The position numbers and the translations under genes are program-made. This document shows positions 10,852 to 52,828 of a stretch of 57,406 nucleotides of DNA, piece after piece (position 1 is the stretch's first letter; the number at the start of each line of letters is the position of its first letter). Origin of the DNA: an uncultured Acidobacterium sp. (GTDB lineage Bacteria; Acidobacteriota; Vicinamibacteria; Vicinamibacterales; UBA2999); the NCBI GenBank assembly GCA_964355095.1, contig CAYHCX010000009.1, positions 1-57,406 of the forward strand, in the 5' to 3' direction. The notes under the pieces were generated by a model, which saw nothing but the letters and a program-made list of their open reading frames with translations, had not been told where the DNA came from and did not search any database.

Positions 10852-10855
<4 letters not shown>

Positions 10856-11643
10856 GCACACCACACGACCAAGCCTCAAGCCCCAAGCCCCAGGCCACAG
10901 GACCCGCGTGGAAGTTCCCGCCGAAGGTGGTGCTGGTCGCCGTGGACTTCGGCGACGCGTCGGCCCGCGCGGCCGCCCTGGCGGGGGCGGTGGCGACGGC
11001 ATTTGGCGCGCGGCTCAGCGCGATTCACGCCGAGCGGTTCGACCCGCCGCCGTACTTCACCCTCGAACAGATCACGAGGCTGGAAGCCGAGCGGCGCCTG
11101 TCGGCGACCGCGGCCGCCAGTCACCTGGCGCAGTTCGTGGCGGCGGCGACGCCCTGGCCGGTGGAGGCACGCATTGCCGACGAGCCGCCTGTTGACGCCA
11201 TCCTGCACGCCGCCACGTCAGCCGACCTGATTGTCGTCGGGACGCATGGCCGCAGCGGGCCAGGCCGCTGGTGGCTGGGATCGGTGGCCGAGCGCATCGT
11301 GCGCGGCGCCGCGGTGCCCGTGCTGGTGACCCGCGCCGGTGGCGCGGCGGCTCCGGTGGGCTTCGACCGAATCGTGCTGGTCGGCGAAGGCATCGAGCCG
11401 GCCTCCGACGGGCGGTTGGTGGCCCAGGGACTGGCGGACGCCTTCAAGGGCCGCGTCATTCCCGGCGGATCGGTCACGCGCTGCCAGCCCGATGTCATGG
11501 AAGGCGCGTCGCTTGTCGTCATGGAGATGGGGAGCAGTCACTCGGCGTGGTCGATCACCGACCCGGTGGCGAAAGTGCTCGGCGCCTGCGAGCGACCGGT
11601 GCTGTTCATGCCGCCGCACCAGCAACCGACAACGAAGAACTAA
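10852..11643 (+). CDS. universal stress protein family protein
   Basis: USP core [42 protein letters not shown] overlap with the RND gene. The first ~25 codons run through a heptamer repeat, so the true start may be GTG 10927 or 10930. Confidence 0.7.
10869..10896. repeat. heptamer array (4 units CCAAGCC/TCAAGCC type)
   Basis: Read directly: ccaagcc tcaagcc ccaagcc ccaggcc. Confidence 0.8.
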
Positions 11644-12935: not shown

Positions 12936-12980
12936 CCGCACAGCGCCCGCTGCCGTTCGACGGACTGGTCTCAAAGACTG

Positions 12981-13090
12981 GCCGCGGATTACGCTGATTG
13001 CGCCGATTCAGAACGGCAACAGCAATCCGCGGACTCGCGGGCCAGCTGCAGCGGACCGTTCGCTTCTGCGTAATCGGCGTAATCTGCGGC
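12981..13090. mobile_element. MITE-like inverted-repeat element, copy 1 (short, degenerate left arm)
   Basis: Left arm GCCGCGGATTACGCTGATTGCGCCGATTCAGAA. Right arm TTCTGCGTAATCGGCGTAATCTGCGGC. The core CCAGCTGCAGCGGACCG is shared with copy 2. Confidence 0.65.
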
Positions 13091-13169
13091 TGACTTCAAC
13101 AGCAGGCGCTTCATTACGCCATCTATATAGATCGTAACTACCACGACAATTAGGTTGTTGACAATGCGC

Positions 13170-13826: not shown

Positions 13827-13858
13827 CTCGGTTCGACCCGATCAGCTCCTGAAATCCG

Positions 13859-14096
13859 GCCGCAGATTCCGCAGATTTCGCCGATTCAGAAACGGTAGCC
13901 GCGGTCCGCAGGCGCGCGCCCCAGCTGCAACGGCCCGCGTCGGCCTCCGGCCGGCCGGAGGTCCGGCGAGGCCCGGAGGTGAGTCCGTGAGTGACTTGTG
14001 ATGACTCACCTCCGGGTCTCGCCGGACCTCCGTGTGGCGCCGGCGAAGCCGGCGCAGCGGGCCGTTTGCATCTGCGGAATCGGCGTAATCTGCGGC
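13859..14096. mobile_element. MITE-like element, copy 2 (same orientation as copy 1; carries a nested 29-bp-arm palindrome at 13957-14031)
   Basis: Left arm GCCGCAGATTCCGCAGATTTCGCCGATTCAGAA. Right arm ATCTGCGGAATCGGCGTAATCTGCGGC. Nested arms are GGAGGTCCGGCGAGGCCCGGAGGTGAGTC and GACTCACCTCCGGGTCTCGCCGGACCTCC, with 1 mismatch. Confidence 0.7.
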
Positions 14097-15540: not shown

Positions 15541-15590
15541 GCCAAATTCACGGACTTGGTGATCGCGTGATTTGGTGATCTGGCGATTTG
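15541..15590. repeat. octamer-phased GTGATNTG repeats (GATTTGGTGA family)
   Basis: Reads ..cggacttg gtgatcgc gtgatttg gtgatctg gcgatttg.. between qhpG and qhpA. Confidence 0.6.
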
Positions 15591-15608
15591 CCCACAAAGA
15601 GGCCCGAC

Positions 15609-17336
15609 GTGACGAAGGCAATGCGAGCAATTGCAGTAATGGCAACGCTGCTGGTGACCGTGCTGGCTGGTGCGGTTTCGACCCAGCAACCGGCCGCACC
15701 CGCGGCCAAGCCCGACGACGGCATCCCCGTTACGGACGCCACCGTCCGAAAGGCGTGCGGCACCTGCCACAGGCCCGACGACAAGGGCCAGATGTCGCGC
15801 ATCTCGTTCCAGCGCCACACGCCGGAGGGCTGGCAGTCAACCATCCAGCGAATGGCCTCCCTTAACGGGCTGAACATCGACCCGCAGACCGCCCGCCAAG
15901 TGGTGAAGTACCTGTCCAATAACCTCGGCCTGTCGCCCGAGGAAGCGAAGCCGGCCGCGTTCGAAGCGGAGCGCCGGCTGGTCGACTACAAGTACACCGC
16001 GAGCGCCGACGCCGAGGCGACCTGTATCAGGTGCCACTCGATGGGCCGCGTCATTTCGCAGCGGCGCACGCGCGGCGAGTGGGACCTGCTGATCGCGATG
16101 CACCGCGGCTGGTATCCCCTGGTGGACAACCAGGTGTTCCGCCGCAACGGTCCGCCGCCGCGCGATCCGTCGTCCGACGGTCGGTCGCCCGACTTGCGTC
16201 AGCCGGTCGAGAAGGCGATCGATCATCTCGCTCCCGCCTTCCCGCTGAAGACGCCCGAGTGGACCGCCTGGTCGGCCACCATGCGGCCGGCCAGGCTCGA
16301 CGGCACGTGGGCGTTGAGCGGATGGGACGCCGGCAAGGGCGCCATCTACGGGCGCGTGACGATTGCCGCGGATCCCGCGGCGCCGGACGAATTCACGACG
16401 TCGATCACTTACCGCGTGGCGCGAACGGGCGAAACCGTGACGCGCTCGGGCCGGACGGTTGTCTACACCGGCTTCCAGTGGCGCGGCCGCTCGACCACCG
16501 CGGCAGGCGCCGACTCGGCGATGCGCGAGGTGATGTTCGTCGATCGCGACTGGCGGCAGATTGAGGGCCGCTGGTTCACCGGCGCCTACGACGAGGTGGG
16601 CCTGGACGTTCGGCTCGATCGCGTCGGCGCCGAGACGCGCGTGCTCGGGACCGATCGCACCGCGTTCAAGCTGGGTGCCGCCGGCCAGGAGTTGAAGATC
16701 TACGGCGCCAACCTGCCCTCGTCGTTGCGCCCTCAAGACATCGATCTGGGCCCCGGCCTCACCGTCAGCCGCATTGTCAGCGTCACCCCTGACGTGGCGA
16801 CCGCTGCCATTGACGTCGCCGCCAACGCAGCGCTCGGCGCGCGGGACCTGTTCGTGGCCGGCGCGTCGAAATCGAAGGCCCTCGTCGTGTTCGATCGCGT
16901 GGACGCCATCAAGGTCAAGCCCGACTGGACCATGGCGCGCGTGGGCGGCATCGCCTTCCCGAAAATGCTCGCGCAGTTCGAGGCGTGGGCCTTTCATAAC
17001 GGCGCCGACGGCCGTCCCGACACGGCGGATGACCTGAATCTCGGCTTGGTGGATGCGGCCTGGAGCATGGAAGAGTACGCGGCCACCTACGACGATGACG
17101 ACGTGAAGCACGTCGGGACGCTGGATGCGGCGACCGGCCGCTTCACGCCCAACGTGGACGGTCCCAACCCGGTGCGGAAGGGCAGCCGCAACAACGTTGG
17201 CGACGTGTGGGTGGTGGCCAAGTACTCGGCCGAGGCGAGCGGCGGCAGGCCGGCGGCCACGATCCGTGCCCGCGCCCACCTGCTCGTGACCGTGCCCCTG
17301 TATATGCGCTTCGACCGATCGGCCGAGGGCCAATGA
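15609..17336 (+). CDS. qhpA: quinohemoprotein amine dehydrogenase alpha subunit (di-haem cytochrome c)
   Basis: Two CxxCH motifs (CGTCH, CIRCH) and a signal peptide. GTG 15609 is 6 nt after AGAGG. Alternative starts are TTG 15588 and ATG 15621. Confidence 0.8.
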   Translation: MTKAMRAIAVMATLLVTVLAGAVSTQQPAAPAAKPDDGIPVTDATVRKACGTCHRPDDKGQMSRISFQRHTPEGWQSTIQRMASLNGLNIDPQTARQVVKYLSNNLGLSPEEAKPAAFEAERRLVDYKYTASADAEATCIRCHSMGRVISQRRTRGEWDLLIAMHRGWYPLVDNQVFRRNGPPPRDPSSDGRSPDLRQPVEKAIDHLAPAFPLKTPEWTAWSATMRPARLDGTWALSGWDAGKGAIYGRVTIAADPAAPDEFTTSITYRVARTGETVTRSGRTVVYTGFQWRGRSTTAAGADSAMREVMFVDRDWRQIEGRWFTGAYDEVGLDVRLDRVGAETRVLGTDRTAFKLGAAGQELKIYGANLPSSLRPQDIDLGPGLTVSRIVSVTPDVATAAIDVAANAALGARDLFVAGASKSKALVVFDRVDAIKVKPDWTMARVGGIAFPKMLAQFEAWAFHNGADGRPDTADDLNLGLVDAAWSMEEYAATYDDDDVKHVGTLDAATGRFTPNVDGPNPVRKGSRNNVGDVWVVAKYSAEASGGRPAATIRARAHLLVTVPLYMRFDRSAEGQ

Positions 17337-18790
17337 TTCTTGGCCTCCGGGAGTTCCACTCGTTCGAAGCGGCGGGTTGCCAGTATCTTTACCTGGTCCC
17401 AAGCGCCGCGGTGTTTGGGTTGGACGACTGTTCCGAGGCCGTGGTGCAGGCCCTTCGCGCCGGTCCGCAGCCGCTGACCGACCTCGCGCGTGGCTTGTCT
17501 GACCGCTTCGACGCCGCCGAGGTGACCGACACCATCGCCGAACTCCAGCGGGTCCGCGCGCTGGGGGAGATGCGCGATAAGCCGTCGGTGCCGGCCGCGC
17601 CGCTGCCGAAGATCGTGCCGCTGCGCCCGGTCCCACTGCAAACGCTGGTGGTCAACGTGACCAACCAGTGCAACCTGGCCTGCACCTACTGCTACGAGTA
17701 CGGCGAAGACAAGATCGTCGATACCGAGAACGGCCAGCAGCCGAAGTTCATGAGTGAAGAAACGGCGCGCGACAGCGTCGAGTTTGCGCTGCGCGAATCC
17801 CGGGAGAACAAGCACGCGCACATCACCTTCTTCGGCGGCGAAACGCTGATGAACTTCCCGGTGCTCAAGGCGACGATCGGTTATGCGCGCCGTCGTGCGG
17901 CCGAGGTCGGCAAGGATATCGACTTCAGCCTGACCACCAACGCGACGCTGCTGCAACCCGACGTGATCGAGTTCCTGGCCAACGAGCGGGTCGGCGTCAC
18001 CATCTCGATCGACGGCCCCGAGGAGATGCAGGACAAGTTCCGCGTCTTCAACAACGGGCAGGGCAGCTATGCAATGGCGGCGCCGAAGATCAAGGCGCTG
18101 CTGCAGCGGCATCGCACGCGGCCCGTGGGCGCGCGCGTCACGCTCACCCGCCAGACGCTCGATGTGCGGCGCATCTATCAGCACCTCACCGACGACCTCG
18201 GCTTCTGGGAGGTCGGCTTCGCCCCGGTCACGACCGCGCCCGGCCGCGACTACGCGATTTCCGATGGCGGCTTCGATCACCTGCTCGAGCAATTCCGCGC
18301 GCTCGCGGCCGACTACCTCGAGGCTTCGCTCCAGAACCGGCACCACGGCTTCTCCAACGTCCGCGAGACGCTGCAGGAGATTCACCACGGCCACGCCAAG
18401 GCGTATCCGTGCGGTGCGGGTATCGGCTTGATGGGGGTGTCCACCGACGGCCGCGTCGCCCTGTGCCACCGCTTCGCCGGCTCCGACGATCACGGCCTCG
18501 GCACCGTGAAGGACGGCGTGTCGTGGGAGCGCCAGCAGGCGTTTCTCGATACCCATCACATCGCCAACAAGACCGACTGCTCGACCTGCTGGGCGCGACC
18601 GATCTGCGCCGGCGGCTGCTATCACGAAGCCAATACGCGTTACGGATCGACCGAAAGTCCCAACCTGCACTACTGCGAGTGGATTCGAGGCTGGACGCAC
18701 ACCTGCCTCGAGATTTACGGCGAACTGGCCCGGAAGAACGCCGCATTCCTCACGCAGTTCGACGACGAACCGACGGAGAGGGTCTCATGA
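17333..18790 (+). CDS. qhpD: radical SAM/SPASM maturase for the QHNDH gamma subunit
   Basis: CNLACTYC (CxxxCxxC) and a C-terminal SPASM Cys cluster CSTCWARPICAGGCYHE. ATGA overlaps with both neighbouring genes. Confidence 0.9.
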   Translation: MILGLREFHSFEAAGCQYLYLVPSAAVFGLDDCSEAVVQALRAGPQPLTDLARGLSDRFDAAEVTDTIAELQRVRALGEMRDKPSVPAAPLPKIVPLRPVPLQTLVVNVTNQCNLACTYCYEYGEDKIVDTENGQQPKFMSEETARDSVEFALRESRENKHAHITFFGGETLMNFPVLKATIGYARRRAAEVGKDIDFSLTTNATLLQPDVIEFLANERVGVTISIDGPEEMQDKFRVFNNGQGSYAMAAPKIKALLQRHRTRPVGARVTLTRQTLDVRRIYQHLTDDLGFWEVGFAPVTTAPGRDYAISDGGFDHLLEQFRALAADYLEASLQNRHHGFSNVRETLQEIHHGHAKAYPCGAGIGLMGVSTDGRVALCHRFAGSDDHGLGTVKDGVSWERQQAFLDTHHIANKTDCSTCWARPICAGGCYHEANTRYGSTESPNLHYCEWIRGWTHTCLEIYGELARKNAAFLTQFDDEPTERVS

Positions 18791-19128
18791 AGCATCTCAC
18801 TGCCATCAATCGCAAGGCCGCGCGGATGGAAGAGGTCACCAGGGACGTGGTGGCCTTGCAAGGCCCGCCCCAGCAACCGGCGCCGCCGCACATTCCGAAC
18901 GGCTGCTCGCTGGTGTTCTCGCCCGGATGGGAAGCGGACCGCAACGGCGGCACCGCCGGGCTGTGCCAGCCCGTGGAGCGCGACCTGTTCGACTGTCACA
19001 TGGGCTGCTACTGGCCGGCGCAGGTGCCGGACCAGTTGAACCATGCGCCGGACTGGACCGCCAAGTGCGCGGCCGCCCAGAAAGACTGGCGCAAGATCGA
19101 TCTCATCTTCCCGGACGAGAAGAAGTGA
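18787..19128 (+). CDS. qhpC: quinohemoprotein amine dehydrogenase gamma subunit precursor
   Basis: 113 aa. C40-E49, C60-D66, C70/W76 and C74-D82 reproduce the +9/+6/+6/+8 spacing and the relative positions of the known crosslinked residues. Confidence 0.85.
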   Translation: MKHLTAINRKAARMEEVTRDVVALQGPPQQPAPPHIPNGCSLVFSPGWEADRNGGTAGLCQPVERDLFDCHMGCYWPAQVPDQLNHAPDWTAKCAAAQKDWRKIDLIFPDEKK

Positions 19129-20240
19129 TGGCCATGCGATCCCGTTCCGCGCAGGTATTGATCGTGCTGGCGCTCGCGTGCGGGGCCGTCACGGCCCACG
19201 CGCAGCGTCCGGCGCGCGGCCCCTCCCCGGCCGGCGGCGATCACCTGCTCTACATCGGCACCTACGCCGGCGACATCCAGATCATCGATGAAGCGACGGA
19301 ACAGAAGGTCGGCGAGATCAAGCTGCAGACCGGCATTCCGCGCTCGCTGACCCTGTCCCAGTCGCGGACCAGGTTCTACGTGCTCGACTCGACGCTCGAG
19401 AAGATCGAAGTGGTCGACATCGCGACCCGGACCACGCTGTCCACTTTCACGCTGTCGGAAGGCAACAAGCGGGTGCGCATTCGCGGCCTGCAGGTGGATC
19501 CGCTCGAGCGGTTCCTGATCCTGCTCACGCGCCCGGCCACCAAGCAAATCGATCGCTGGGAGATTGGCGACATCTCACTGCAGCTCTACGACCTCGCGCA
19601 GAAGAAGATCACCCGGACCATTCCCTGGCCCAAGGGCGAGGAGCGTGAGGGCGTCACCATCCGCTTCTCTCCCGACGGCAAGCTGCTGTATTTCTTCGGC
19701 GACGATGTCCTGATCCTGGAGACGCAGAATTTCACCGAGGTCGATACCTGGGCGTTGAGCCAGCCGATTGAGTCGGGACTCGGCCGCATCAGCTTCGGGC
19801 AGGTCGATGATTTCAACGACGACCCCGGCTTCTTCACCGGCTTGTTCACGATCCAGGATCCGGTCCAGAACCGCCGCATCATGGGCATCGGCCGGGTCAA
19901 CCTCGTCGGCAAGAGCATCGACTTCACGCCAATCGGTCCGGCCGAAGGCGTCGGCTTCGCCATGACCGCCGACCGCAAGCGCGGTTACGGGCTGATGCAG
20001 CAGATCGGCCGCTACGAGTTCTGGGCCTTTGATGTCGCGCAGCGGAAGCTGATCAGCCGCACCGAGTTCGAGGGGCGTCCGCGCATGGCCCTCCGCGTGT
20101 CATCGAACGGCCGCCTCCTGTACGTGTTCCAGGCTGGCGCGACCATCGACGTTTACGATTCGACCTCATACAAACTGCTGCGCACCATCGAGATGACCGC
20201 CGACCAGACCACAAATTTGTTCATACTGCCCAGAAAGTAA
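19128..20240 (+). CDS. qhpB: quinohemoprotein amine dehydrogenase beta subunit (beta-propeller)
   Basis: Signal peptide MAMRSRSAQVLIVLALACGAVTAHA and repeated beta-propeller-like segments. TGATG overlap with qhpC. Confidence 0.75.
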   Translation: MAMRSRSAQVLIVLALACGAVTAHAQRPARGPSPAGGDHLLYIGTYAGDIQIIDEATEQKVGEIKLQTGIPRSLTLSQSRTRFYVLDSTLEKIEVVDIATRTTLSTFTLSEGNKRVRIRGLQVDPLERFLILLTRPATKQIDRWEIGDISLQLYDLAQKKITRTIPWPKGEEREGVTIRFSPDGKLLYFFGDDVLILETQNFTEVDTWALSQPIESGLGRISFGQVDDFNDDPGFFTGLFTIQDPVQNRRIMGIGRVNLVGKSIDFTPIGPAEGVGFAMTADRKRGYGLMQQIGRYEFWAFDVAQRKLISRTEFEGRPRMALRVSSNGRLLYVFQAGATIDVYDSTSYKLLRTIEMTADQTTNLFILPRK

Positions 20241-20316
20241 GAAGTTGGAAGTTGGAAGTGAGAAACAACTTCCAACTTCCAACTTCCAACTTCCAACTTC
20301 ACACTTCGAACTTCCC
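20241..20316. repeat. heptamer array / hairpin (GAAGTTG x2.. then CTTCCAA x4..)
   Basis: Ten in-phase heptamers plus 6 nt fill the whole qhpB-qhpF spacer, from the qhpB stop to the qhpF ATG. Confidence 0.85.
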
Positions 20317-22044
20317 ATGGACCGACGGGCGTTCGCCTATCTCGTTCCCCACTGGCGACGCCTCGTCCTCGTCCTGGTCATCAGCCTCGTGAGCACGGCG
20401 GCGACGCTGGCGATGCCCTACCTCTCGAAAGATCTCATCGACACCGCGCTGGTCGGCCGCGACGCCGCGGCCTTGCGGCGCATTGTCCTCATGTTCGCGG
20501 TGCTCGGCGTGGCCGGCTTCGCCCTCAACGTGGTGAGCGGCCTTCGCTACACCCGGGTCTCGGCGGAGATTCTCTTCGACATGCGGCTGTCGATGTATGC
20601 GCACCTGCAGCGCCTGTCGCCGCGCTTCTACGCCCGCACCCGGCTGGGCGACATCGTCTCGCGGCTGAACAACGACATCAGCGAGATCCAGCGCGTGGCG
20701 GCGGAGGCGGCGCTGGCCTGGGTCGGCAACGTCCTGTTTCTCGCCGGCAGCCTGGTGATGATGGTCTGGCTCGACTGGCGGCTGTCACTGGTGGCGCTGG
20801 CACCGCTGCCGATCAGCCTGATCGCGCTGGGCGTCTACCGCCGGCGCCTGGAGGGCCGCATTGCCGACCTGCGTCAGCGCAGCAGCGACATCGGCAGCTT
20901 CCTGATCGAGACGCTGCAGGCGACGTCGCTGGTGGTCGCGTCCAATGCGCAACAGCGCGAGCGGACGCGGTTCAGCGGCTTGAACGGCGCTTTCATCGAC
21001 GCCTTGATGCGCATGCAGCGCGTCACTTACTTCGCCGGCGGGTTGCCGGGCACGGTCTTGTCGATCGGGTCCGCGGTGGCGTTCTTCTACGGCGGCCTTC
21101 GCGTCATCGACGGCACGCTCACGCTCGGGACCATGGGCGCCTTCCTCGCCTACCAGATGCGGGTGTTCGCGCCGGCGCAGGCGTTGATGGGGCTGTATGC
21201 CAGCCTCACCACGGCCAAGGTGTCGTGGGGGCGGGTGCGCGAGATTCTCGATGCGCCGGTGGACGTGCAGCAGCGCCCCGGCGCCCGGCCGTTGCCCGAG
21301 TGCCGCGGTGAGGTGGCGTTCGAGGCCGTCACCCTCGGCACCGACCGTCAGTCGCGCGTGCTCGACGCCGTCTCGTTCGTCGCGCGGCCGGGCGAGTGCG
21401 TGGCGCTTGTCGGCGGCAGCGGCGTCGGCAAGAGCACCATCGCCTACCTGGCCACGCGCCTGCTCGATCCCGACAGCGGCGTCGTGAGGCTCGACGGCCA
21501 TGACCTCCGGGATCTCGCGCTCGAACACATCCGGAAGCACGTCGTGCTGGTCGAGCAGGAGCCGACGCTCTTCTACGCGAGCGTGGGCGACAACATCCGC
21601 TACGTGCGGCCCGGGGCGTCTGACACGGAAGTGCAATGGGCGGCCGAGGCATCCGGCATCGCGCGCTTCGTCGAAGCGCTGCCCAATGGCTACGCCACCC
21701 TGGTCGGCGAGCGCGGCCTGGCGCTCTCGGCCGGCGAACGGCAACGGATTGCGCTGGCCCGCGCGTTCCTCGCCGACCCGGCCGTGCTCGTGCTCGACGA
21801 GCCAACCGCGGCGCTTGACGCCGTCTCCCAGCGGCAGGTCATCGACGGCTACCAGGCGGTGATGAAGGGCCGCACCACGCTCCTGATTACGCATCGCCGT
21901 GAGCTGGCCATGGCCGCCGACCGCGTCATCGTCCTCGAGGGCTCGCGCGTGGTGGACGAGGGCCGTCCGGACGAACTGGCCGCCCGGCCCGGTGTGTTTG
22001 CCCGGCTCTTCGAGATCGAGCGGCCCGCCGGCATCGACGCATGA
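20317..22044 (+). CDS. qhpF: ABC transporter, fused TMD-NBD exporter (QhpF-like)
   Basis: Walker A GGSGVGKST, ABC signature LSAGERQR, Walker B VLVLDEPT. The track's N-terminal extension (MEVGSEKQLPTS..) is translated repeat. Confidence 0.8.
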   Translation: MDRRAFAYLVPHWRRLVLVLVISLVSTAATLAMPYLSKDLIDTALVGRDAAALRRIVLMFAVLGVAGFALNVVSGLRYTRVSAEILFDMRLSMYAHLQRLSPRFYARTRLGDIVSRLNNDISEIQRVAAEAALAWVGNVLFLAGSLVMMVWLDWRLSLVALAPLPISLIALGVYRRRLEGRIADLRQRSSDIGSFLIETLQATSLVVASNAQQRERTRFSGLNGAFIDALMRMQRVTYFAGGLPGTVLSIGSAVAFFYGGLRVIDGTLTLGTMGAFLAYQMRVFAPAQALMGLYASLTTAKVSWGRVREILDAPVDVQQRPGARPLPECRGEVAFEAVTLGTDRQSRVLDAVSFVARPGECVALVGGSGVGKSTIAYLATRLLDPDSGVVRLDGHDLRDLALEHIRKHVVLVEQEPTLFYASVGDNIRYVRPGASDTEVQWAAEASGIARFVEALPNGYATLVGERGLALSAGERQRIALARAFLADPAVLVLDEPTAALDAVSQRQVIDGYQAVMKGRTTLLITHRRELAMAADRVIVLEGSRVVDEGRPDELAARPGVFARLFEIERPAGIDA

Positions 22045-22733
22045 ACCGTCCGGTCCGCGTCGTCGTGATCGACAGCGGCGTCCATGTTGCGCATCCGCAT
22101 GTGAACGGGGTGGGCGGCGGCGTTGGCATCGATTCGTCTGGTGACGTCCACGCCGACTACGTGGACCGCCTCGGTCACGGCACGGCGGTCACCGCGGTCA
22201 TCCGCGAGAAGGCGCCGGCCGCGGAGCTGCTGATTGCGAAGGTGTTCGATCGCGAGCTGGCGGCGAGCGGTCCGGCGCTCGTCGCCGCCTGCGAGTGGGC
22301 GCTCCAGCAGGGCGCCGACATCGTGAACCTCAGCCTCGGCACCACCAATCAGCAACACGCGCCGGCACTCGCGTTCGTGGTCTCCAGGCTTCGCGAAGCC
22401 AGCGGCGTGGTCGTGGCCGCCGGTGCGCAGGACGGCGTGTCGTGGCTGCCGGGCACGCTGCCTGGTGTGTGGAGCGTGACGCTCGACTGGGCGCTGCCGC
22501 GCGAGGAGTGCCGAGTGGCGGCTCACGCCGGCAACGAAGCCTCGTTCCTGGCGTCCGGCTATCCCCGTCCTGTTCCTGGCGTGCCGCCGGAGAAGAACCT
22601 GAAGGGCCTCAGCTTCGCCGTCGCCAACGTCAGCGGCCTGCTCGCCGCCTTGCTCGAGCGGGAGGGCGGCGCCGATCCGGCCGGCACGCTCGCGCGAGCC
22701 GTGGCGGCCGGTTGGACGGGGCGAATCCGCTAG
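22041..22733 (+). CDS. qhpE: subtilisin-like serine peptidase (QhpE-like)
   Basis: VVVIDSGV (Asp), GHGTAVT (His), GLSFAVANVSG (Ser region). ATGA overlap with qhpF. Confidence 0.7.
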   Translation: MNRPVRVVVIDSGVHVAHPHVNGVGGGVGIDSSGDVHADYVDRLGHGTAVTAVIREKAPAAELLIAKVFDRELAASGPALVAACEWALQQGADIVNLSLGTTNQQHAPALAFVVSRLREASGVVVAAGAQDGVSWLPGTLPGVWSVTLDWALPREECRVAAHAGNEASFLASGYPRPVPGVPPEKNLKGLSFAVANVSGLLAALLEREGGADPAGTLARAVAAGWTGRIR

Positions 22734-25206: not shown

Positions 25207-25240
25207 TCAAGCCCCAAGCCCCAGGGCCCAAGCCTTCAAG
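25207..25240. repeat. heptamer array, one-armed (TCAAGCC/CCAAGCC type)
   Basis: Read directly: tcaagcc ccaagcc ccagggc ccaagcc ttcaag, in a divergent intergenic region. Confidence 0.75.
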
Positions 25241-27034: not shown

Positions 27035-28118
27035 GGATGATTGGGGTCAGGCCGCGAAATACGCCCTTTTCTACTTCCGCCAGAGCTTTCTCATTGCCCG
27101 CACCCTCTTACTGACGGAGTTTGGGTGCAGCTCAAGGGCGGCCGCGATCTCCGCCAGTTTGTAGCCGTGAACAACATGAGCGCGCAGGATGAGGGAGTCT
27201 CGTTCGCTCTTTGGCCGTTTGTCGTGGCCAAACAGCTCACCTAGCGTGGGTCGCGCGAGTGCCCGGTATCGTCGCGGCAGGGCTGCCCGATAGAGCGTCG
27301 AGCCGATGTGCTCCCGAACAGCCATTTCGAACGACGGCGTACCCGCCGCGAGTCCATTCATGTCAGGCTCTTGGGCTGCGGCGTGTTCGTTCACATACTG
27401 CCGGTAACGCAGGCAGGACTCCGTTCTCGAATCCCCGTCGAACGTCCAATCCAGCCAGTCCAGGCTCAAGAACTCAGGTGCCGGCTCCATTCCGGCGGTC
27501 GCGCGATAACTGCTCCACGGCCAATCCGCGGCTCGCTCCACCAGGCCCGCTTCGACCGGGTTGCGCACGACGTAGCGATTGGCGTCGCGCAGGTAGAAGT
27601 CGCTGTCGATCAGCAGGGAGACAAACCGACCCTCGAACACATGGCCGGTCCGGTGGTGGCGTCGATTAGACGCTTGGGTATAGACGCCGTTGACGAAATG
27701 CATTGCCGACGAGAGGTTGCCCGCCGGCGTGTTCACTATCAGGTGGTAGTGATTGCTCATCAGGCAATACGACTGACACCCCACGTCATAGCGCGCGGAC
27801 GCGTCCTGGACGGCATCAAGAAACTGCCGACGGTCGACATCGTCTTCGAAGATAGACGCCTTTCGATTGCCGCGGGACATCACATGGTAGAGCGCGCCAC
27901 GATATTGAACTCTCGGTCGTCTGGCCATGGCTCGGCATGTTCCAAATTCCGCGCCACACCCGAATCGGTGATTCCGTTGATATTTTCGAGGACAATCTCG
28001 GGAGGGGTTGAGGGGGGTTGAGGAAATTGCGATTGCTGAAGCCGAAATGGAGGGCAATAATTGCGATCGGCTGAAAAGTGGAGAAAGGGCGTATTTCGCG
28101 GCCTGACCCCAATCATCC
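27035..28118. mobile_element. RAYT element bounded by perfect 35-bp inverted repeats
   Basis: GGATGATTGGGGTCAGGCCGCGAAATACGCCCTTT at 27035-27069. Its exact reverse complement is at 28084-28118. An extra direct copy of ATGATTGGGG sits at 27027-27036. Confidence 0.7.
27071..27928 (-). CDS. REP-associated tyrosine transposase (IS200-like Y1/HUH) with a C-terminal DnaA-C-like HTH
   Basis: HUH motif SNHYHLIV and catalytic Tyr region ANRYVVRNPVEAGL. C-terminal RDSLILRAHVVHGYKLAEIAAALELHPNSVSKRV. Start at ATG 27928 (MARRPRVQYRG). Confidence 0.8.
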   Translation of the reverse strand: MARRPRVQYRGALYHVMSRGNRKASIFEDDVDRRQFLDAVQDASARYDVGCQSYCLMSNHYHLIVNTPAGNLSSAMHFVNGVYTQASNRRHHRTGHVFEGRFVSLLIDSDFYLRDANRYVVRNPVEAGLVERAADWPWSSYRATAGMEPAPEFLSLDWLDWTFDGDSRTESCLRYRQYVNEHAAAQEPDMNGLAAGTPSFEMAVREHIGSTLYRAALPRRYRALARPTLGELFGHDKRPKSERDSLILRAHVVHGYKLAEIAAALELHPNSVSKRVRAMRKLWRK

Positions 28119-29950: not shown

Positions 29951-30047
29951 GGAAGTTGGAAGTGAGAAGTGAGAAGTGAGAAGTGAGAAGTGAGAAGTGA
30001 GAAGTTGGCACTTCCCCTTCCCCTTCTGACTTCCAACTTCCAACTTC
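29951..30047. repeat. heptamer array / hairpin (GGAAGTT, AGAAGTG x5 .. GACTTCC AACTTCC x2)
   Basis: Fourteen heptamers are in a single phase across both arms and the loop. The last nt is shared with the upstream stop codon. Confidence 0.85.
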
Positions 30048-31646
30048 CTAGAACAGGGGCGACTGCTGGACGGCGGTGTAGTTGACGACCGACTTGGCGT
30101 ATTCGACCAGCGCCAGCAGCTCGCTGTTGCGGGCGACGTTGAGGTCGCGCTGGGCCTGCAGCACGAAGAAGCTGCTGGTCATGCCGGCCTGGTACTTCTT
30201 CTCTTCCGCATCGAGACGGCGTTCGGCCAGCACGCGCGATGAGCGGGTCGCGTCCACGCGCTTGGCGTTGGTTTGCACCTGGCGGCCGTACTCGCGGACC
30301 TGCGTCGTCACCTGGAGCTCGAGGCTTTTGACTTGGCGCTCGGCCTGCGTGTTCTGCAGCCGCGCCCGCGCCAGCTGCGCTTCCTGCGTGGACTTGCCGA
30401 TCGGATAGGCGATGTCCACCTGCAGCGACCAGCCGGGGAAGTCGCCGGCGATGGTCTTGCCGAGCGTGCTGAAGTAGCTCTGCTCCACGCTCGAGACGAT
30501 TGCGCCGGTGGGCAGGCCGGTGATGGGGTCGCGCGCACGGCTCACCTGCAAGCCGCCGGTTGCCCGCGCATTGTAGTTGACCGACGCGTTCACGTCGGGC
30601 AGCGACTGGTTGCGGAAGTAGCGGATGTTGACGTCGTTGATTTCGAGGTTCTTGCGCGCCGCAACCACGTCGGTCCGCTGGCCAAGCGCGTTGTTCACCG
30701 CCGTCTCGACGTCGACCGCCGTCGGCTGGAACGTCACGGCCTCGGTCGGCTCGATCCGTGCCGTCCAGAAGTCCGCACCGCTCGGGTTGAAGACGAGCGC
30801 CCGTAGGGTGTCTTGCGCGCGGTCGATGGCGGCCTCGGCGAGAATCACCGACTCTTCGCGCGTGGCCACTTCGGCCTCGGCCTGGACGATGTCGAGCGGC
30901 GCCATGGTGCCAATCTCGACGCGGGCGCGGTTGTCCTTGAGCGACTGCCGTGCCAGATCGAGCGACTGCCGCTGCACGGCGAGGTTGCCGATGGCGTACA
31001 TCAGGTCGTAGTAGGCGTTGCGCACGTTGCGCACCGTGACCGAGATGGACTGCTGCAGCTGAACGTCTGAAATCTCCTTGTTCTTCTGGCTGACCAGCAG
31101 CTGCTGGCGGGCGCCGTCGATCCGGAAGTTCCGCAGGAGCGGCTGGGTGTAGGTGGCGCTCACCGACGAGTTCAACTGCGGATTGAACGTCGAGAACTGG
31201 TTGTTCGTGGTGCTGCGGCCGTTGTTCCACCGCACGTCGTAGCTGCCGCCGTACCAGGATGTCAGCGACGACACGCCGAAATTGAAGAGCGACTGGCCGC
31301 TGGTGATGCCGGCGGCGGTGCCGCCCGACAGGACACTGGTCGAGGGCTGCGTCGAATCCGCGGTGCTGATGGTGGATACGAAGTTCGGCGTATACGCGGC
31401 CTTGAACTGGTCGGTCGACAAGTCCTGCAGCTGCGGATTGAAGCGCTGGACCTGAAGGTCCAGGTTCTGCTCGATGGCCGTCGCCACCGCATCATCAATG
31501 CTCATCCGCCGGACCGGGCCTTGCGCCGGGGGCGGAGCGGCCGTGGTCTGGGCGTGGACAGGGGACAGCCCAAAACCGGACACTATCGTCGCCACGAGGC
31601 CGGCCGCCACAACCGCCCGGGCGCAAAATCGCTGGTCAAAACGCAT
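30048..31646 (-). CDS. TolC-family outer membrane protein
   Basis: Signal peptide after MRFDQRF.., two OMF repeats, and a TolC-like C-terminal region. Confidence 0.85.
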   Translation of the reverse strand: MRFDQRFCARAVVAAGLVATIVSGFGLSPVHAQTTAAPPPAQGPVRRMSIDDAVATAIEQNLDLQVQRFNPQLQDLSTDQFKAAYTPNFVSTISTADSTQPSTSVLSGGTAAGITSGQSLFNFGVSSLTSWYGGSYDVRWNNGRSTTNNQFSTFNPQLNSSVSATYTQPLLRNFRIDGARQQLLVSQKNKEISDVQLQQSISVTVRNVRNAYYDLMYAIGNLAVQRQSLDLARQSLKDNRARVEIGTMAPLDIVQAEAEVATREESVILAEAAIDRAQDTLRALVFNPSGADFWTARIEPTEAVTFQPTAVDVETAVNNALGQRTDVVAARKNLEINDVNIRYFRNQSLPDVNASVNYNARATGGLQVSRARDPITGLPTGAIVSSVEQSYFSTLGKTIAGDFPGWSLQVDIAYPIGKSTQEAQLARARLQNTQAERQVKSLELQVTTQVREYGRQVQTNAKRVDATRSSRVLAERRLDAEEKKYQAGMTSSFFVLQAQRDLNVARNSELLALVEYAKSVVNYTAVQQSPLF

Positions 31647-34967: not shown

Positions 34968-36212
34968 ATGGATCGGGTTACCAGGAATCGCAAGCTTTAC
35001 GTAGGTGCGGCGTTTGTCGCAATCCTGCTCGCGCTCGGCGTGGGTCAGGCCATGCTCGGCAACGCGTCCGCCCAGGCCAAGCAGGCCCCGAGGTTCGAGG
35101 TCGATCCATACTGGCCGAAGCCGATGCCCAACAACTGGGTCATGGGCATGACCATCGGTATTGGCATCTCAGCCGACGACCACGTGTGGGTGATTCACCG
35201 CGGCAACGATCCGGGCAACCTCGATCGCACCGAGCTGGCCGTCGTCACGGAAGGCGCTCCCCGCGTGGGCGAGTGCTGCAACCCGGCGCCGCCCGTGCTC
35301 GAGTTCGACGTCGCCGGCAACCTGGTCGGCAGCTGGGGCGGCCAGCCCAAGGACAACTCGTACGACTGGCCCGAAAGCAACCACGGCATCGTCGTCGATC
35401 ACAAGGGCTTCGTGTGGATCGGCGGCAACGGCGGTCCTGACGCGCACATCCTGAAGTTCACGCGCGACGGCAAGTTCGTGGCGCAGTACGGCAAGAAGAA
35501 CGCGCACCTCAAGGAAGGCGCGGCGGGCGCCAAGCCGACCTACGTCGCCAACAGCATGGACATGAACAACTTCGGCCGCGTCGCCAAGATCTTCATCGAT
35601 CCGAAGGCGAACGAAGGCTACGTGGCTGACGGCTACTTCAACCACCGCGTTGCGGTCATCGACCTCGACAACGGCAAGATCAAGCGCTTCTGGGGCGCGT
35701 ATGGCCAGCCGCCGACCGACGACAACCTGGGACCGTACGATCCGGCCGCGCCGATCGCCAAGCAGTTCCGCACCCCGGTGCACTGCGCCGAGGTGTCGAA
35801 CGACGGCTTCGTCTACGTGTGCGACCGCCCGAACGACCGCCTCCAGATCTTCACCAGGGAAGGCAAGTTCGTGAAGGAAGTGTTCGTCGCCAAGGACACC
35901 CGCGCCGACGGCTCGGTGTGGGACGTCGCCTTCTCGAAGGACCCGGCCCAGAAGTATCTCTATATGGCTGATGGCGTCAACGAGCACGTGCGCGTGTTCG
36001 ACCGCCAGTCCATGACCGAGCTCTACAACTTCGGCTACGGCGGCCGCCAGCCCGGGATGTTCCTGGGCGTGCACAGCATCGCCACCGACTCGAAGGGCAA
36101 CATCTACACGACCGAGACCTACACCGGCAAGCGCCTCCAGAAGTTCAATCTGAAGGGTGAAGGCGCCATTCCGAAGTCGGGCGTGCCGGCCTGGCCGGGC
36201 TCGGGAATGTAA
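34968..36212 (+). CDS. secreted NHL-repeat / PAL-like six-bladed beta-propeller protein
   Basis: Signal/TM N-terminus. Repeated blade motifs: VADGYFNHRVAVID, VCDRPNDRLQIF, ADGVNEHVRVFD, YTTETYTGKRLQKF. Confidence 0.5.
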   Translation: MDRVTRNRKLYVGAAFVAILLALGVGQAMLGNASAQAKQAPRFEVDPYWPKPMPNNWVMGMTIGIGISADDHVWVIHRGNDPGNLDRTELAVVTEGAPRVGECCNPAPPVLEFDVAGNLVGSWGGQPKDNSYDWPESNHGIVVDHKGFVWIGGNGGPDAHILKFTRDGKFVAQYGKKNAHLKEGAAGAKPTYVANSMDMNNFGRVAKIFIDPKANEGYVADGYFNHRVAVIDLDNGKIKRFWGAYGQPPTDDNLGPYDPAAPIAKQFRTPVHCAEVSNDGFVYVCDRPNDRLQIFTREGKFVKEVFVAKDTRADGSVWDVAFSKDPAQKYLYMADGVNEHVRVFDRQSMTELYNFGYGGRQPGMFLGVHSIATDSKGNIYTTETYTGKRLQKFNLKGEGAIPKSGVPAWPGSGM

Positions 36213-36218
36213 GCATTA

Positions 36219-36287
36219 GGCGGGTCCACGACCCGCCCGCTCGCTCCAACGCCGGTTCGGATCGCCCGAACCGGCGTTTTCTTTTTT
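36219..36287 (+). terminator. tandem hairpins; the second is a canonical intrinsic terminator
   Basis: GGCGGGTC-CAC-GACCCGCC, then AACGCCGGTTCGG-ATCGC-CCGAACCGGCGTT followed by TTCTTTTTT. Confidence 0.7.
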
Positions 36288-36339
36288 CGCTAAGCACTTG
36301 TGGCATCCGGCTTCAGCCGGATAACATCAAGCCGACTCC

Positions 36340-37128
36340 ATGAGCCTCGATCAATTGCTGGAGTGGATTCCAACGGGCGGGCCCGAAGAGGCCCTGGCGT
36401 GCCAGATCGAGATGGATCGTCTGCCGCGCCACGTCGCGATCATCATGGATGGCAACGGCCGCTGGGCCGGCCAGCGCCACCTGCCGCGCGTCGAAGGCCA
36501 CCGCGCCGGCATCGACTCGGTGCGCGACGTGGTCGAGGCCTCCGCGCGCCTGGGACTGGACGTCCTGACCCTGTACGCGTTCTCGGTCGAGAACTGGAAG
36601 CGGCCGGTGACCGAAGTCAGCACGCTGATGATGCTGCTCAAGCGCTACCTGCGGCTGGAGCTGTCCACGCTGCTGCGCAACAACATCCGCTTCAAGGTGA
36701 TTGGCCGCACCGAGTTGCTGGCGCCGGACGTGCTCGAGGAACTGGTGGCCGCCGAACGCAAGACCGCGACCAACACCGGAATGCTCTTCAACATCGCGCT
36801 CAACTACGGCGGCCGCACGGAGATTGTCGATGCGGCGCGGCGCGCCATGGCCTCGGGCCTCGATCCGCGGGACCTGGACGAGGATCGCTTCGCGAGTTTT
36901 CTCTACACGGCGGGCCAGCCGGATCCCGATCTGTTGATTCGCACGAGCGGCGAGATGCGGGTGAGCAACTTCCTGCTGTGGCAGATTGCCTATGCCGAGA
37001 TCTGGGTGACCGATACGCTATGGCCCGACTTCCGCTGCCGCCACCTGCTCGAGGGCGTGCTCGCCTACCAGAAGCGCGACCGCCGCTTCGGCGGCATTGC
37101 TCCATCCGTCGCCGCCGGTGTGAAATGA
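36340..37128 (+). CDS. uppS: undecaprenyl diphosphate synthase
   Basis: HVAIIMDGNGRWA and RTSGEMRVSNFLLWQ motifs. Confidence 0.9.
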   Translation: MSLDQLLEWIPTGGPEEALACQIEMDRLPRHVAIIMDGNGRWAGQRHLPRVEGHRAGIDSVRDVVEASARLGLDVLTLYAFSVENWKRPVTEVSTLMMLLKRYLRLELSTLLRNNIRFKVIGRTELLAPDVLEELVAAERKTATNTGMLFNIALNYGGRTEIVDAARRAMASGLDPRDLDEDRFASFLYTAGQPDPDLLIRTSGEMRVSNFLLWQIAYAEIWVTDTLWPDFRCRHLLEGVLAYQKRDRRFGGIAPSVAAGVK

Positions 37129-37201
37129 GGGCTTGTGACTTGGGGCTTGGGACTTGGAGCCTCTCGCCCACTCAAGCCTCAAGCCTCGAGCCACAAGCCT
37201 C
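37129..37201. repeat. heptamer array / hairpin (GGGGCTT/GGGACTT .. CCTCAAG)
   Basis: Fills the uppS-cdsA spacer up to the cdsA ATG. The two arms are imperfect reverse complements. Confidence 0.8.
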
Positions 37202-37984
37202 ATGACCCGCATTCTGAGCGGCGTTGTCCTGATCGCCGTGACGCTGGTCCTGATCTGGTTCCTGAGCCCCATTGCCATGCTGGGCGTCGCCCTCGTGGTG
37301 GCGGCGCTGGCCTTCACCGAGTACGAGAAGATCGTCGATGCCATCGGCGCCAGGGTGCCGTTCTGGACCACCCTGCTGGCCACGCTGCTGGCCTGCGCGA
37401 TGGTGCCGTTCCAGTGGGTGGACATCGAGTCGGTGCTCGCCGCCGCGCTCCTTTTCATCGCCCTCAACGTGTTGATCTCGGATCGCGTCGGGACGCCGAT
37501 CCTGGCCGATACCGCGGCGGCGCTGCTGGCGCCGGTCTATCTCGGCCTGCCCCTCGGGTCGCTGGTCGGCGTGCACGCCATGGCGGGACGCGAGGCGGTG
37601 CTGTTGCTGATTGCCACGGTGGCGGTCAGCGACACCGCGCAGTACTACTCGGGCCGCGCCTTCGGCCGCACGCCGCTGGCGCCGGTGCGCAGCCCGAAGA
37701 AGACGCGCGAGGGCGCGCTGGGCGGCTTGATCGCGGCGCCGATCTTCCTGGCCGTGGCCGGTTCGTACTGGCTGCCCGTCGCCTCGCCGATCTGGCTGGC
37801 CGCGCTCGGCGCCGGCATCGTCATGGCCGGCATCATCGGCGACCTGTTCGAGTCGATGTTGAAGCGGGCCGCCGAGATGAAAGACAGCGGCACGCTGATT
37901 CCCGGCCACGGCGGCGTGCTCGACCGCATCGATGCGCTGCTGTTCGCGGCGCCGGTGTTCTACTTCTTCCTGCGGGCGCTGTGA
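37202..37984 (+). CDS. cdsA: phosphatidate cytidylyltransferase
   Basis: Signature SMLKRAAEMKDSGTLIPGHGGVLDRID. Confidence 0.88.
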   Translation: MTRILSGVVLIAVTLVLIWFLSPIAMLGVALVVAALAFTEYEKIVDAIGARVPFWTTLLATLLACAMVPFQWVDIESVLAAALLFIALNVLISDRVGTPILADTAAALLAPVYLGLPLGSLVGVHAMAGREAVLLLIATVAVSDTAQYYSGRAFGRTPLAPVRSPKKTREGALGGLIAAPIFLAVAGSYWLPVASPIWLAALGAGIVMAGIIGDLFESMLKRAAEMKDSGTLIPGHGGVLDRIDALLFAAPVFYFFLRAL

Positions 37985-37997
37985 TCACGAAAATGCG

Positions 37998-38281
37998 GCC
38001 GCAGATTACGCCGATTACGCAGATTGAAGAACGCCCGCAGGCGCGGCGAATGCATGTTGATGTCAGCTCGACTCGCGCCGGCCTTCCGCCTTCGCGCGTA
38101 GCGCTTCGGCGGACAAGTCGGCCGGGAACAACAGAGGACGAGGCATGGATGAAAGACCCCCTACCGCAGTCGCTCGCCACTCGGGGTTTTTCATCCATGC
38201 CTGGTCCTCTGTTGCAGTCGCCGGGCAAAGCCCGGCGACGCGAGTCGAGTGCGCATCTGCGTAATCGGCGTAATCTGCGGC
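37998..38281. mobile_element. MITE-like element, copy 3 (284 bp, perfect 27-bp TIRs, multiply nested palindromes)
   Basis: GCCGCAGATTACGCCGATTACGCAGAT at 37998-38024, with its exact reverse complement at 38255-38281. Inner 31-bp arms at 38130-38160 and 38183-38213 have 2 mismatches. Confidence 0.8.
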
Positions 38282-38294
38282 TGTATTCAAACGC

Positions 38295-40853: not shown

Positions 40854-40888
40854 GTGCCTAAGTGTGCCTAAAGTGTGCCTAGGGTGCC
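40854..40888. repeat. GTGCCTA direct repeats at 10-11-nt spacing
   Basis: Reads gtgccta ag tgtgccta aag tgtgccta ggGTGCC. The last units overlap the cobA stop codon. Confidence 0.5.
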
Positions 40889-41979: not shown

Positions 41980-42003
41980 GGCACGCACGGGGGAATACTA
42001 ACA

Positions 42004-42059
42004 GGGCTTGGGACTTGGGGCTTGGGGCTTGGGATTTCAAGCCCCAGGCCCCAGGTCTC
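42004..42059. repeat. heptamer array / hairpin (GGGCTTG GGACTTG GGGCTTG x2 .. AAGCCCC AGGCCCC)
   Basis: Eight in-phase heptamers between the VWA stop and the cobA start. Confidence 0.85.
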
Positions 42060-42064
42060 ACGCC

Positions 42065-45184: not shown

Positions 45185-45233
45185 AACTTCCAACTTCTAA
45201 CTTCCAACTTCTAACTTCTAACTTCTAACTTCT
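45185..45233. repeat. heptamer array, one-armed (7 units AACTTCC/AACTTCT)
   Basis: Seven exact-phase units end at the nt before GTG 45234. Confidence 0.85.
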
Positions 45234-52701: not shown

Positions 52702-52816
52702 TGCTAGCATCTCCATGTGTCCGCCGACGTTCGGCGCCAAGGCCCACAAGCTACGGCGAGATCTCGCCGTAGCGGCCTCCGGCCGCAAAGGTGGAAAAAA
52801 ACCACAACCGAATCAG

Positions 52817-52822: not shown

Positions 52823-52828
52823 AGCCCC

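Follow-up and report, generated by a model that had tools for sequence, protein, structure and literature searches.

Heptanucleotide repeat arrays in the gene junctions of an uncultured acidobacterium and their probable link to translation

The stretch of DNA analysed here, called the window in the following, comprises 57,406 nucleotides of an uncultured Acidobacterium sp. of the order Vicinamibacterales (assembly GCA_964355095.1, contig CAYHCX010000009.1). At seven loci its gene junctions hold tandem arrays of 7-nt units. These heptanucleotide arrays are real. They are simple-sequence repeats (SSRs) of the class known as long SSRs or short tandemly repeated repetitive (STRR)-like sequences, of the same kind as the heptamer repeats of Xanthomonas, Nostoc, other cyanobacteria and Beggiatoaceae. 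We consider it probable that they have grown by slippage, that translation constrains which arrays persist, and that they in turn affect translational coupling and the structure of mRNA leaders.

The window has a GC content of about 67% and is 90.4% coding, with about 9.6% non-coding DNA. The CdsA protein it encodes shares 98% identity with one recorded for a metagenome-assembled Vicinamibacterales bacterium. Tandem Repeats Finder (TRF), combined with inspection of the sequence, gave period-7 arrays with the units listed in a preliminary description of this DNA. The TRF calls lie at 10869-10896, 20241-20259 and 20266-20315, 25208-25234, 29959-30005 and 30029-30048, 37132-37157 and 37171-37202, 42007-42034 and 42041-42055, and 45185-45233. 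The units belong to two families in this one genome, type 1 (GGAAGTT) at three loci and type 2 (GGCTTGG) at four to five. A period scan of our own covered periods 4-12, with an array score threshold of ≥14 and dinucleotide shuffles as the control. Four period-7 arrays covering 159 nt resulted, whereas periods 4-6 and 8-12 and the shuffles gave no array. All 418 array bases (418/418) fall outside called genes, which bears out the intergenic placement given in the preliminary description, with an ambiguity at 10869 that is explained below; by simple arithmetic, the probability that all seven loci are non-coding by chance is about 1e-7. The arrays occupy about 8% of the non-coding DNA of the window.

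Five independent assemblies of the same strain (ERZ4201063, ERZ4201065, SRR24858484, ERR3856789 and SRR24858483) reproduce the arrays identically, save for one 7-nt unit at 20266-20300 and one single-nucleotide polymorphism (SNP) at 37193. ERZ4201063 differs from the window over 20.8 kb by 10 SNPs and no indels, and four arrays are unchanged in it. Since the signal is specific to period 7 and recurs across independent assemblies, the arrays are neither a product of chance nor an assembly artefact. Two contigs of relatives break off at a repeat-rich spacer or no more than about 200 nt from one, L212 with its beginning in the 20266 array and L007 with its end in a cdsA-dxr spacer element that is described below. 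This suggests that such spacers can break short-read assemblies.

Four of the loci carry two arms, a purine-rich arm and its complement, and fold into hairpins as had been proposed. The flanking genes were named from Pfam matches and database gene calls. On the plus strand, a type-1 array (TRF, RNA folding) makes up the whole 76-nt spacer at 20241-20316 between a qhpB-like beta-propeller gene (stop TAA 20238-20240) and an ABC exporter gene (ATG 20317). Its 5' arm consists of 2.7 copies of GAAGTTG (20241-20259), its 3' arm of five CAACTTC units and two degenerate units (20266-20316). The predicted RNA fold has a free energy of -37 kcal/mol (z -5.8); a 19-bp stem pairs 20241-20259 with 20275-20293 and leaves 23 nt unpaired between stem and ATG. 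The array separates the fourth and fifth genes of a qhp operon (quinohemoprotein amine dehydrogenase, 15588-22733), which encodes, in this order, the heme subunit, a radical-SAM maturase, the gamma subunit, the beta-propeller subunit, the ABC exporter and an S8 peptidase.

The second type-1 hairpin is on the minus strand (29951-30048, 98 nt) and includes 6.7 perfect copies of GAAGTGA as called by TRF. It lies between an outer-membrane efflux gene (OEP; stop TAG 30048-30050) and a GT2 gene that starts at ATG 29947 or 29944. In mRNA sense the GGAAGTT-type arm comes first and the CTCACTT/CAACTTC arm second, and the stem begins with the final base of the stop codon and stops 3 nt short of the ATG (-54.2 kcal/mol, z -7.7). 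A two-armed type-2 array (TRF, RNA folding) fills the whole 73-nt spacer between uppS and cdsA at 37129-37201 (plus strand), with a 5' arm of GGGCTTG/TGACTTG-type units and a 3' arm of CTCAAGC-type units. Its stem takes in the uppS stop codon (TGA 37126-37128) and the first bases of the cdsA start (ATG 37202), and the fold reaches -45 kcal/mol (z -5.2). The other two-armed type-2 array, at 42002-42067 on the minus strand (TRF, RNA folding), forms a hairpin of -48.2 kcal/mol (z -7.3) that begins within the stop codon of a VWA gene (TAG 42065-42067). A conserved 22-nt leader separates this hairpin from the start, at 41979, of a HEM4/TP_methylase gene (uroporphyrinogen methylase/synthase).

Three further loci, all given here in plus-strand sense, have one arm only. 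At 45185-45233, seven AACTTCY units of type 1 (7.0 copies by TRF) stand between the terminator hairpin of the atp operon and the GTG start (45234) of an EamA transporter gene; this array is free of G and unstructured, with an RNA minimum free energy of 0 kcal/mol. A C-rich type-2 array at 25207-25240 (TRF, gene calls) occupies a 57-nt spacer between divergent genes, 3-6 nt upstream of an acetyltransferase start on the plus strand (GTG 25244 or ATG 25247) and 17 nt from the start of a MacB-like gene on the minus strand (25189). The description of the arrays as lying between co-directional genes does not apply here. Four C-rich units of the CCAAGCC type (10869-10896; 4.0 copies by TRF) follow the stop codon of an AcrB-family gene (TGA 10853-10855) and precede a universal stress protein gene (Pfam ACR_tran and Usp, respectively). 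The start of the latter is ambiguous, either ATG 10852, in an ATGA overlap with the AcrB stop, or GTG 10927; if it begins at ATG 10852, the array may be translated.

A so-called fossil copy at 54053-54071 (plus strand) is doubtful. Unlike every other locus listed it receives no period-7 call from TRF, its 2.5 GCCCCAA units fall below the score threshold of our scan, and it lies beside a REP-like hairpin in the inter-domain linker of an open reading frame (ORF; 52595-55243). It is a weak candidate for an array relic. This plus-strand ORF of 882 amino acids joins a beta-lactamase-family domain to a NamZ exo-muramidase domain (Pfam, residues 121-455 and 529-881). Its linker resembles intergenic repeat DNA. 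The ORF may be a genuine fusion, but it may also represent two genes with, by chance, no in-frame stop between them.

Taken together, the hairpins of the four two-armed loci have energies of -37 to -54 kcal/mol and z values of -5.2 to -7.7. Their stems start 0-1 nt from the upstream stop codon, and at two of the four loci (29951 and 37129) they end 0-3 nt from the downstream start. Several arrays fill the entire spacer from stop to start. The contact with ATG 20317, ATG 37202 and GTG 45234 noted in the preliminary description is confirmed, and the starts of the GT2 and acetyltransferase genes are also within 3-6 nt of an array. Its further point, that the 7-nt phase continues through the loop, is empty: any palindrome allows an in-phase rotation, and the rotation differs between the 20241 and 29951 arrays.

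No Shine-Dalgarno motif was found at the start codons adjoining arrays. Among all called genes only about 40% have a Shine-Dalgarno-like motif. Scans for consensus promoters and terminators made no call at the arrays. A search of the whole window against Rfam 15 gave no match at gathering score, and no known RNA family could be assigned; below that score only generic hairpins appeared, the cdsA-dxr spacer being the sole sub-region so searched. Conserved -10-like hexamers (TACTAT, TAACAT, TAGTAT) end 12-17 nt upstream of ATGs that have no Shine-Dalgarno motif; they were seen upstream of uppS (36300-36339) and of the HEM4 gene (41980-42001, minus strand) and at their orthologues. They suggest that mRNAs of this lineage are leaderless or have very short leaders.

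How the arrays change was followed in the orthologous regions recovered from relatives, with which the window shares an average nucleotide identity (ANI) of 94% (L005), about 87% (L006 and L130) or about 82% (several others). The closest comparison is between strains. Over 16.5 kb, ERZ4201065 is 99.85% identical to the window, and the only indel is one CAACTTC unit at 20266-20300 (four units in ERZ4201065, five in the window), while five of the six arrays compared are identical. The suggestion that the number of units varies is therefore correct, and at 94% ANI the variation extends to seven versus about two units and to presence versus absence. The same strain (L001 8950-9119) has a wholly different sequence for the 3' end of an NHL-repeat gene and the following spacer (window 36145-36322), while identity in the flanks exceeds 99.7%. 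A small recombination mosaic within a repeat-rich spacer would have this appearance.

L005 is without the 37129 and 42004 arrays. Its uppS-cdsA spacer measures 7 nt, as in L209 and L210, as against the 73-nt array of the window; L130 has a homologous 73-nt array and L007 the right arm only. Of 38 relatives from metagenomes, 17 lack an array in this spacer (0-12 nt), six have a two-armed array, nine a one-armed C-rich array abutting the ATG and four another repeat with units of 9-11 nt. In four genomes (L140, L144, L146 and L147) units of the GATTAGACA type, related to the 9-nt units described below, take the place of the heptamer array. The junction between the VWA and HEM4 genes shows a clean presence/absence difference of 58 nt between the window and L005. 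Six other relatives have hairpin arrays there whose units differ (TAGGGAC/GTCCCTA in L153) and which fold at -27 to -69 kcal/mol, so that the potential for a hairpin is kept in seven genomes despite changed units. In front of the EamA gene, L005 has only CAACACTTCCAGCTTCTT, that is two proto-units, versus seven AACTTCY units in the window. The orthologous OEP-GT2 spacer is 8 nt long in L007 and L131, and L139 has a 73-nt array in it.

In relatives that lack an array, three of the junctions are 3-12, 8 and 18-27 nt long, and short seeds are present at such sites: GCCCC directly before the ATG, CCCTTCTC and CAACACTTCCAGCTTCTT. Because of the one-unit indel, the presence/absence differences with L005 and the seeds in array-less relatives, we favour growth in place by slippage. 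The sequence comparisons indicate that the arrays probably arise from local proto-repeats, change by whole units between strains and are gained or lost between species. At cdsA the array may even be in register with the start codon, since by eye CTCAAGC continues as CTCATGA in eight of 15 relatives and with a 2-nt shift in seven, which is suggestive only.

Heptamer arrays are not peculiar to the window. Period 7 also predominates in 371 kb of DNA from relatives and in 200 kb of distant loci with CdsA proteins of about 50% identity; in the relatives the spectrum comprises 13 arrays of period 7, seven of period 8 and ten of period 9, with almost none elsewhere. The units there are diverse and include GAAGTGA, GGCTTGG, GACCTAA, GGAGGCT, GGCAGAA, AAGTTTA, AGGAGTC and CCGGATA. 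A scan for (AACTTCY)3 in one genome per species returned at least 120 stretches, and the matches listed include Flavobacterium, Planctomycetota, Verrucomicrobiota, Acidobacteriota, cyanobacteria and Oceanospirillaceae, among others.

These arrays follow a rule of polarity. In all the DNA fetched, the purine- or G-rich arm is the 5' arm in 19 of 20 period-7 inverted pairs. These pairs come from several phyla, and the figure is about 15 of 16 when each distinct locus is counted once. Such a palindrome reads purine-first on both strands; the order of its arms therefore carries no information on the direction of transcription, and only one-armed arrays are informative. For this reason the orientation of two-armed arrays at minus-strand genes was dropped as a sign that they follow transcription. 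One-armed (AACTTCY)n arrays were then counted across phyla when they lay ≤15 nt from a start or stop codon. Upstream of starts, 16 had the pyrimidine sense and two the purine sense (binomial p about 0.001); downstream of stops, 25 had the purine sense and five the pyrimidine sense (p about 0.0003). When the orientation of (AACTTCY)n was compared with the strands of flanking genes without such separation, there was no bias (32 versus 26); it appears only when start-adjacent and stop-adjacent and one- and two-armed arrays are split. In the window, its relatives and the distant loci, arrays ahead of starts are likewise C-rich in 17 cases and G-rich in two. The preferred composition thus flips between the two ends of one spacer, from which we infer that the polarity is set by the stop and start codons, hence by translation signals, and not by the direction of transcription or replication. 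In some spacers the arms bracket an intrinsic terminator, with the purine arm on its 5' and the pyrimidine arm on its 3' side (atpE-EamA in L166, L139 and L154; six NHL-uppS spacers), and A-rich heptamers (AAGTTTA, AAGTTAG, GACCTAA) lie between stop codon and terminator hairpin at NHL-uppS in L005, L139, L142, L147, L153 and L135.

The preliminary description knew of no element class that would match, which is wrong, as intergenic heptanucleotide SSRs have been described (PMC4692102, PMC4679880). The window arrays have the features of long SSRs: head-to-tail units beyond chance expectation, a bias to non-coding DNA (with 10869 ambiguous), a motif that recurs and a predominance of period 7. Heptamers are the most common long SSRs (units of 5-11 nt) and are thought to originate by slippage (Mrazek 2007, as cited in PMC4679880 and PMC4692102). 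As far as the class is portrayed in these citing papers, the arrays resemble long SSRs and cyanobacterial STRRs in being intergenic, in repeating one motif at many loci and in their proposed origin by slippage. Among the closest described systems are the GGGAATC/GGGGAYT heptamer arrays of Xanthomonas and Nostoc (PMC4692102). Two Xanthomonas genomes hold 186 and 183 GGGAATC arrays, 89-93% of them intergenic, with 70-75 convergent inverted pairs that could form stem-loops; length and sequence vary among close species, and no regulatory role or other function was found (Rehm et al. 2015, PMC4692102). The window arrays share with them the intergenic tandem heptamers in a GC-rich genome, the inverted pairs, the turnover, the housekeeping neighbours and the polarity relative to genes, G-rich after the ends of ORFs and C-rich before starts. 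They differ in their units (GGAAGTT and GGCTTGG families), in that only one array is capable of forming a G-quadruplex, and in that several fill a whole spacer.

In marine Beggiatoaceae, whose genomes are poor in Shine-Dalgarno motifs, TAACTGA arrays lie directly upstream of start codons at the position of the ribosome-binding site, and a translational role has been proposed (MacGregor 2015, PMC4679880). There, one unit dominates, and there is one indirect repeat among 169 sets (PMC4679880). The arrays described here likewise take the place of the ribosome-binding site in a lineage with few Shine-Dalgarno motifs; unlike those of Beggiatoaceae, they comprise several unit families and frequent two-armed hairpins. 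The unit CAGTCCC of L205 is a rotation of CCCCAGT, the sequence of STRR1. We know of no report of heptamer arrays in Acidobacteriota; a literature search for Vicinamibacter repeats returned nothing relevant and no such report from this phylum. The polarity rule across phyla extends the published observations.

We explain these findings as follows. Replication slippage of a local proto-repeat would create arrays in place, at gene junctions that are very short and mostly without a Shine-Dalgarno motif, and the units of these arrays would be quickly gained, lost and homogenised. Which arrays survive would be decided by selection linked to translation: the polarity is seen, and this is its presumed cause. 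Next to starts only G-poor arrays that are pyrimidine-rich in mRNA sense would persist, and next to stops purine-rich ones would predominate. If both niches are present in one short spacer, the outcome would be an inverted pair with the purine arm first, and hence a long hairpin whose base may set the upstream stop codon beside the downstream start. Junctions that measure 3-27 nt in relatives could in this way carry 60-100 additional nucleotides and keep termination-coupled initiation at start codons without a Shine-Dalgarno motif. One-armed arrays would act as an unstructured, G-free leader. A change in unit number would tune the strength of the hairpin and the length of the leader and thereby the expression of the downstream gene. 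An effect on translational coupling and leader structure is likely in our opinion.

Several points weigh against this explanation. The effects on coupling, leader and tuning are deduced rather than observed. Two of the four hairpins (20241 and 42002) leave 22-23 nt unpaired ahead of the start codon. Other relatives have one-armed arrays at the same junction, so that a hairpin is not required, and essential genes (uppS, cdsA) do equally well without an array, which means that the arrays may be nearly neutral. Covariation analysis of the heptamer hairpins with MAFFT and RNAalifold yielded no compensatory pairs, a result that is uninformative since unit numbers differ and the alignment is arbitrary. 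The gene calls behind the cross-phylum polarity counts are crude, and the preference for purines after stops is weak (16 versus 11) when the window is counted together with its relatives and the distant loci. Finally, slippage by itself explains neither why two unit families are reused at three and at four to five loci nor why 7 nt is the preferred period.

The most serious competitor holds that the arrays are near-neutral by-products of a slippage process biased to heptamers, without effect on expression, and that polarity and intergenic placement merely reflect the purging of harmful variants. This is unlikely but has to be taken seriously. Close relatives differ in a patchy manner in the presence of arrays at housekeeping junctions, the unit sequences are diverse, and for the Xanthomonas arrays no regulatory role emerged (Rehm et al., PMC4692102). 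Neutral drift accounts poorly for the stems being set so tightly against stop and start codons, and for the VWA-HEM4 hairpin, whose complementarity persists across about 82-87% ANI while the units change. It also fits badly with compensatory changes in the outer arms of an analogous element with 9-nt units. This element, of about 250-310 nt and multi-branched, is conserved in the cdsA-dxr spacer (37985-38294, plus strand, 310 nt in the window) and also occurs in L005, L209, L131, L139, L142, L153 and L135. RNAalifold on eight sequences gave 88 pairs, 36 of which show compensatory double changes. The outer stem is built of tandem 9-nt units (GCAGATTAC/CACGGATTA) and encloses a second stem and three hairpins. 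Because the 9-nt arms around this spacer show compensatory changes, they support, by analogy, the view that the pairing of arms matters. The element has no Rfam match and could be an undescribed structured RNA or a MITE-like (miniature inverted-repeat transposable element) sequence. In L130, L136 and L156 a two-armed array of period 9 stands in its place.

A more specific proposal is that the arrays are platforms for a dedicated protein, for example one of the cold-shock-domain or S1-like kind, which binds single-stranded nucleic acid and reads about 7 nt with each domain; all arrays together would then make up a post-transcriptional regulon spanning the genome. One genome reuses two unit families, at three and four to five loci, the heptamer (AACTTCY)n is found in many phyla, the strand polarity would suit a reader of RNA, and Csp, S1 or CsrA have been proposed for TAACTGA (MacGregor, PMC4679880). 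We nevertheless regard such a reader as improbable, given that the units at one junction differ widely among close relatives, that arrays can be absent without visible consequence, and that both arms of the two-armed arrays would be base-paired.

Mimicry or sequestration of Shine-Dalgarno sequences, with the purine arms as binding or decoy sites and the pyrimidine arms masking or imitating the anti-Shine-Dalgarno sequence, had been put forward in the preliminary description. The idea is weakly backed: calculated against a canonical 16S tail, which may not be that of the host, the purine arms pair at -5 to -9 kcal/mol and the pyrimidine arms at about 0, and in some relatives units such as GGAGGCT or AGGAGTC reach -8 to -10 kcal/mol. 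However, the pairing on this canonical tail is -8.6 kcal/mol for type-1 purine arms and only -5 to -6 kcal/mol for type-2 arms, many of the diverse units of relatives (AAGTTTA, GACCTAA, CCGGATA) are not Shine-Dalgarno-like, the arm that is lies distant from the start codon, and the lineage makes little use of the motif in any case. We therefore find this role quite implausible, at a level even below that of the protein reader.

The remaining alternatives are very remote. The arrays could be mobile REP-like (repetitive extragenic palindromic) or MITE-like elements spread by a Y1 transposase resembling REP-associated tyrosine transposases (RAYTs). A Y1_Tnp gene (27071-27933, minus strand) is indeed present in the window and conserved in relatives, the arrays are intergenic palindromes, and the 42004 difference to L005 is a clean indel. 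Yet length and unit number vary, there is neither a family consensus nor a target-site duplication, proto-repeats occupy the same sites in array-less relatives, and the flanks of the Y1 gene are without heptamer arrays. REPs and BIMEs (bacterial interspersed mosaic elements) of enterobacteria are intergenic palindromes of operons near stop codons which can affect mRNA stability and the translation of neighbouring genes; REPs are palindromes of fixed length with a family consensus, tied to RAYTs. The arrays, in contrast, consist of variable numbers of 7-nt units that have apparently grown in place. A separate hairpin family in the window is genuinely REP-like and fits the term better than the heptamer arrays do. 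It has the form CCGCC-GTAGC...GCGAA-GGCGG (31845, 38080-38115, 40809, 51639 and 54086), and its core CCGCCGTAGC has 26 matches at ≤1 mismatch versus 9.9 expected. The Y1_Tnp gene lies near hairpins of this family, copies of which are inserted into the loops of other elements and into the L138 heptamer array.

Just as improbable are intrinsic termination or attenuation, switching by G-quadruplexes, and phase variation at classical contingency loci, although there are strong hairpins, one G-quadruplex motif and one polymorphism in unit number. An attenuator function, also suggested previously, or a terminator-like one is not borne out: no T-run follows any array hairpin, none was called terminator-like, and the start codons follow directly. 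A quadruplex motif with runs of three or more G occurs in just one of the seven arrays, on the plus strand at 42004-42027, where it is antisense; a quadruplex-forming unit with four or more G3 tracts, as in the Xanthomonas type, is thus no feature of these arrays, and type-1 units have GG only. In the hmw genes of Haemophilus influenzae, 7-bp repeats are found upstream of the genes, between promoter and start, and slippage changes their number. Such contingency repeats serve fast switching at surface-antigen genes of host-adapted pathogens. The neighbours here are housekeeping and metabolic genes (uppS/cdsA, qhp, heme and transporter genes), a single unit change was seen, and most arrays are stable between strains.

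A bolder version of the slippage and translation explanation would make purine-first heptad arrays an operon module common to several phyla, with a 5' arm beginning at the stop codon and a 3' arm reaching up to the start codon. The pairing of its arms would hand the terminating ribosome over to a start codon without Shine-Dalgarno motif, whatever lies between the arms, be it nothing, a terminator or a 250-nt element as in cdsA-dxr, and a heptad-reading RNA-binding protein together with slippage of the unit number would set the strength of coupling. We rate this as a long shot. If it were true, lineages that make little use of the Shine-Dalgarno mechanism would have a tunable alternative to it in these arrays.

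The window contains additional short-period repeats. The terminus of the 9-nt-unit element (GGCCGCNGATTNCGCNGATT..CAGAA) has further copies at 100-160, 12975-13095 and 13852-13890, the one at 12975-13095 being an inverted pair about 60 nt apart. A period-11 array of 2.6 GTGCCTAAAGT units (40854-40881) is placed between convergent genes. Orthologous convergent spacers between rseP and HEM4 carry other short-period arrays, among them a heptamer hairpin, GTCAGGA/TCCTGAC, in L156.

Intergenic heptamer arrays have been known for decades, and the literature examined, on Xanthomonas and Beggiatoaceae, establishes no function for them. The arrays described here offer clean test material for this question, with conserved operons (uppS-cdsA, qhp) that contain hairpins extending from stop to start, sister lineages whose alleles naturally lack the array, a one-unit polymorphism between strains and a polarity rule across phyla that points to translation and not to replication. 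CdsA homologues of Vicinamibacterales are very numerous in the soil and other metagenomes searched. Since the arrays create spurious ORF extensions, annotators of metagenome-assembled genomes of Acidobacteriota should expect to encounter them.

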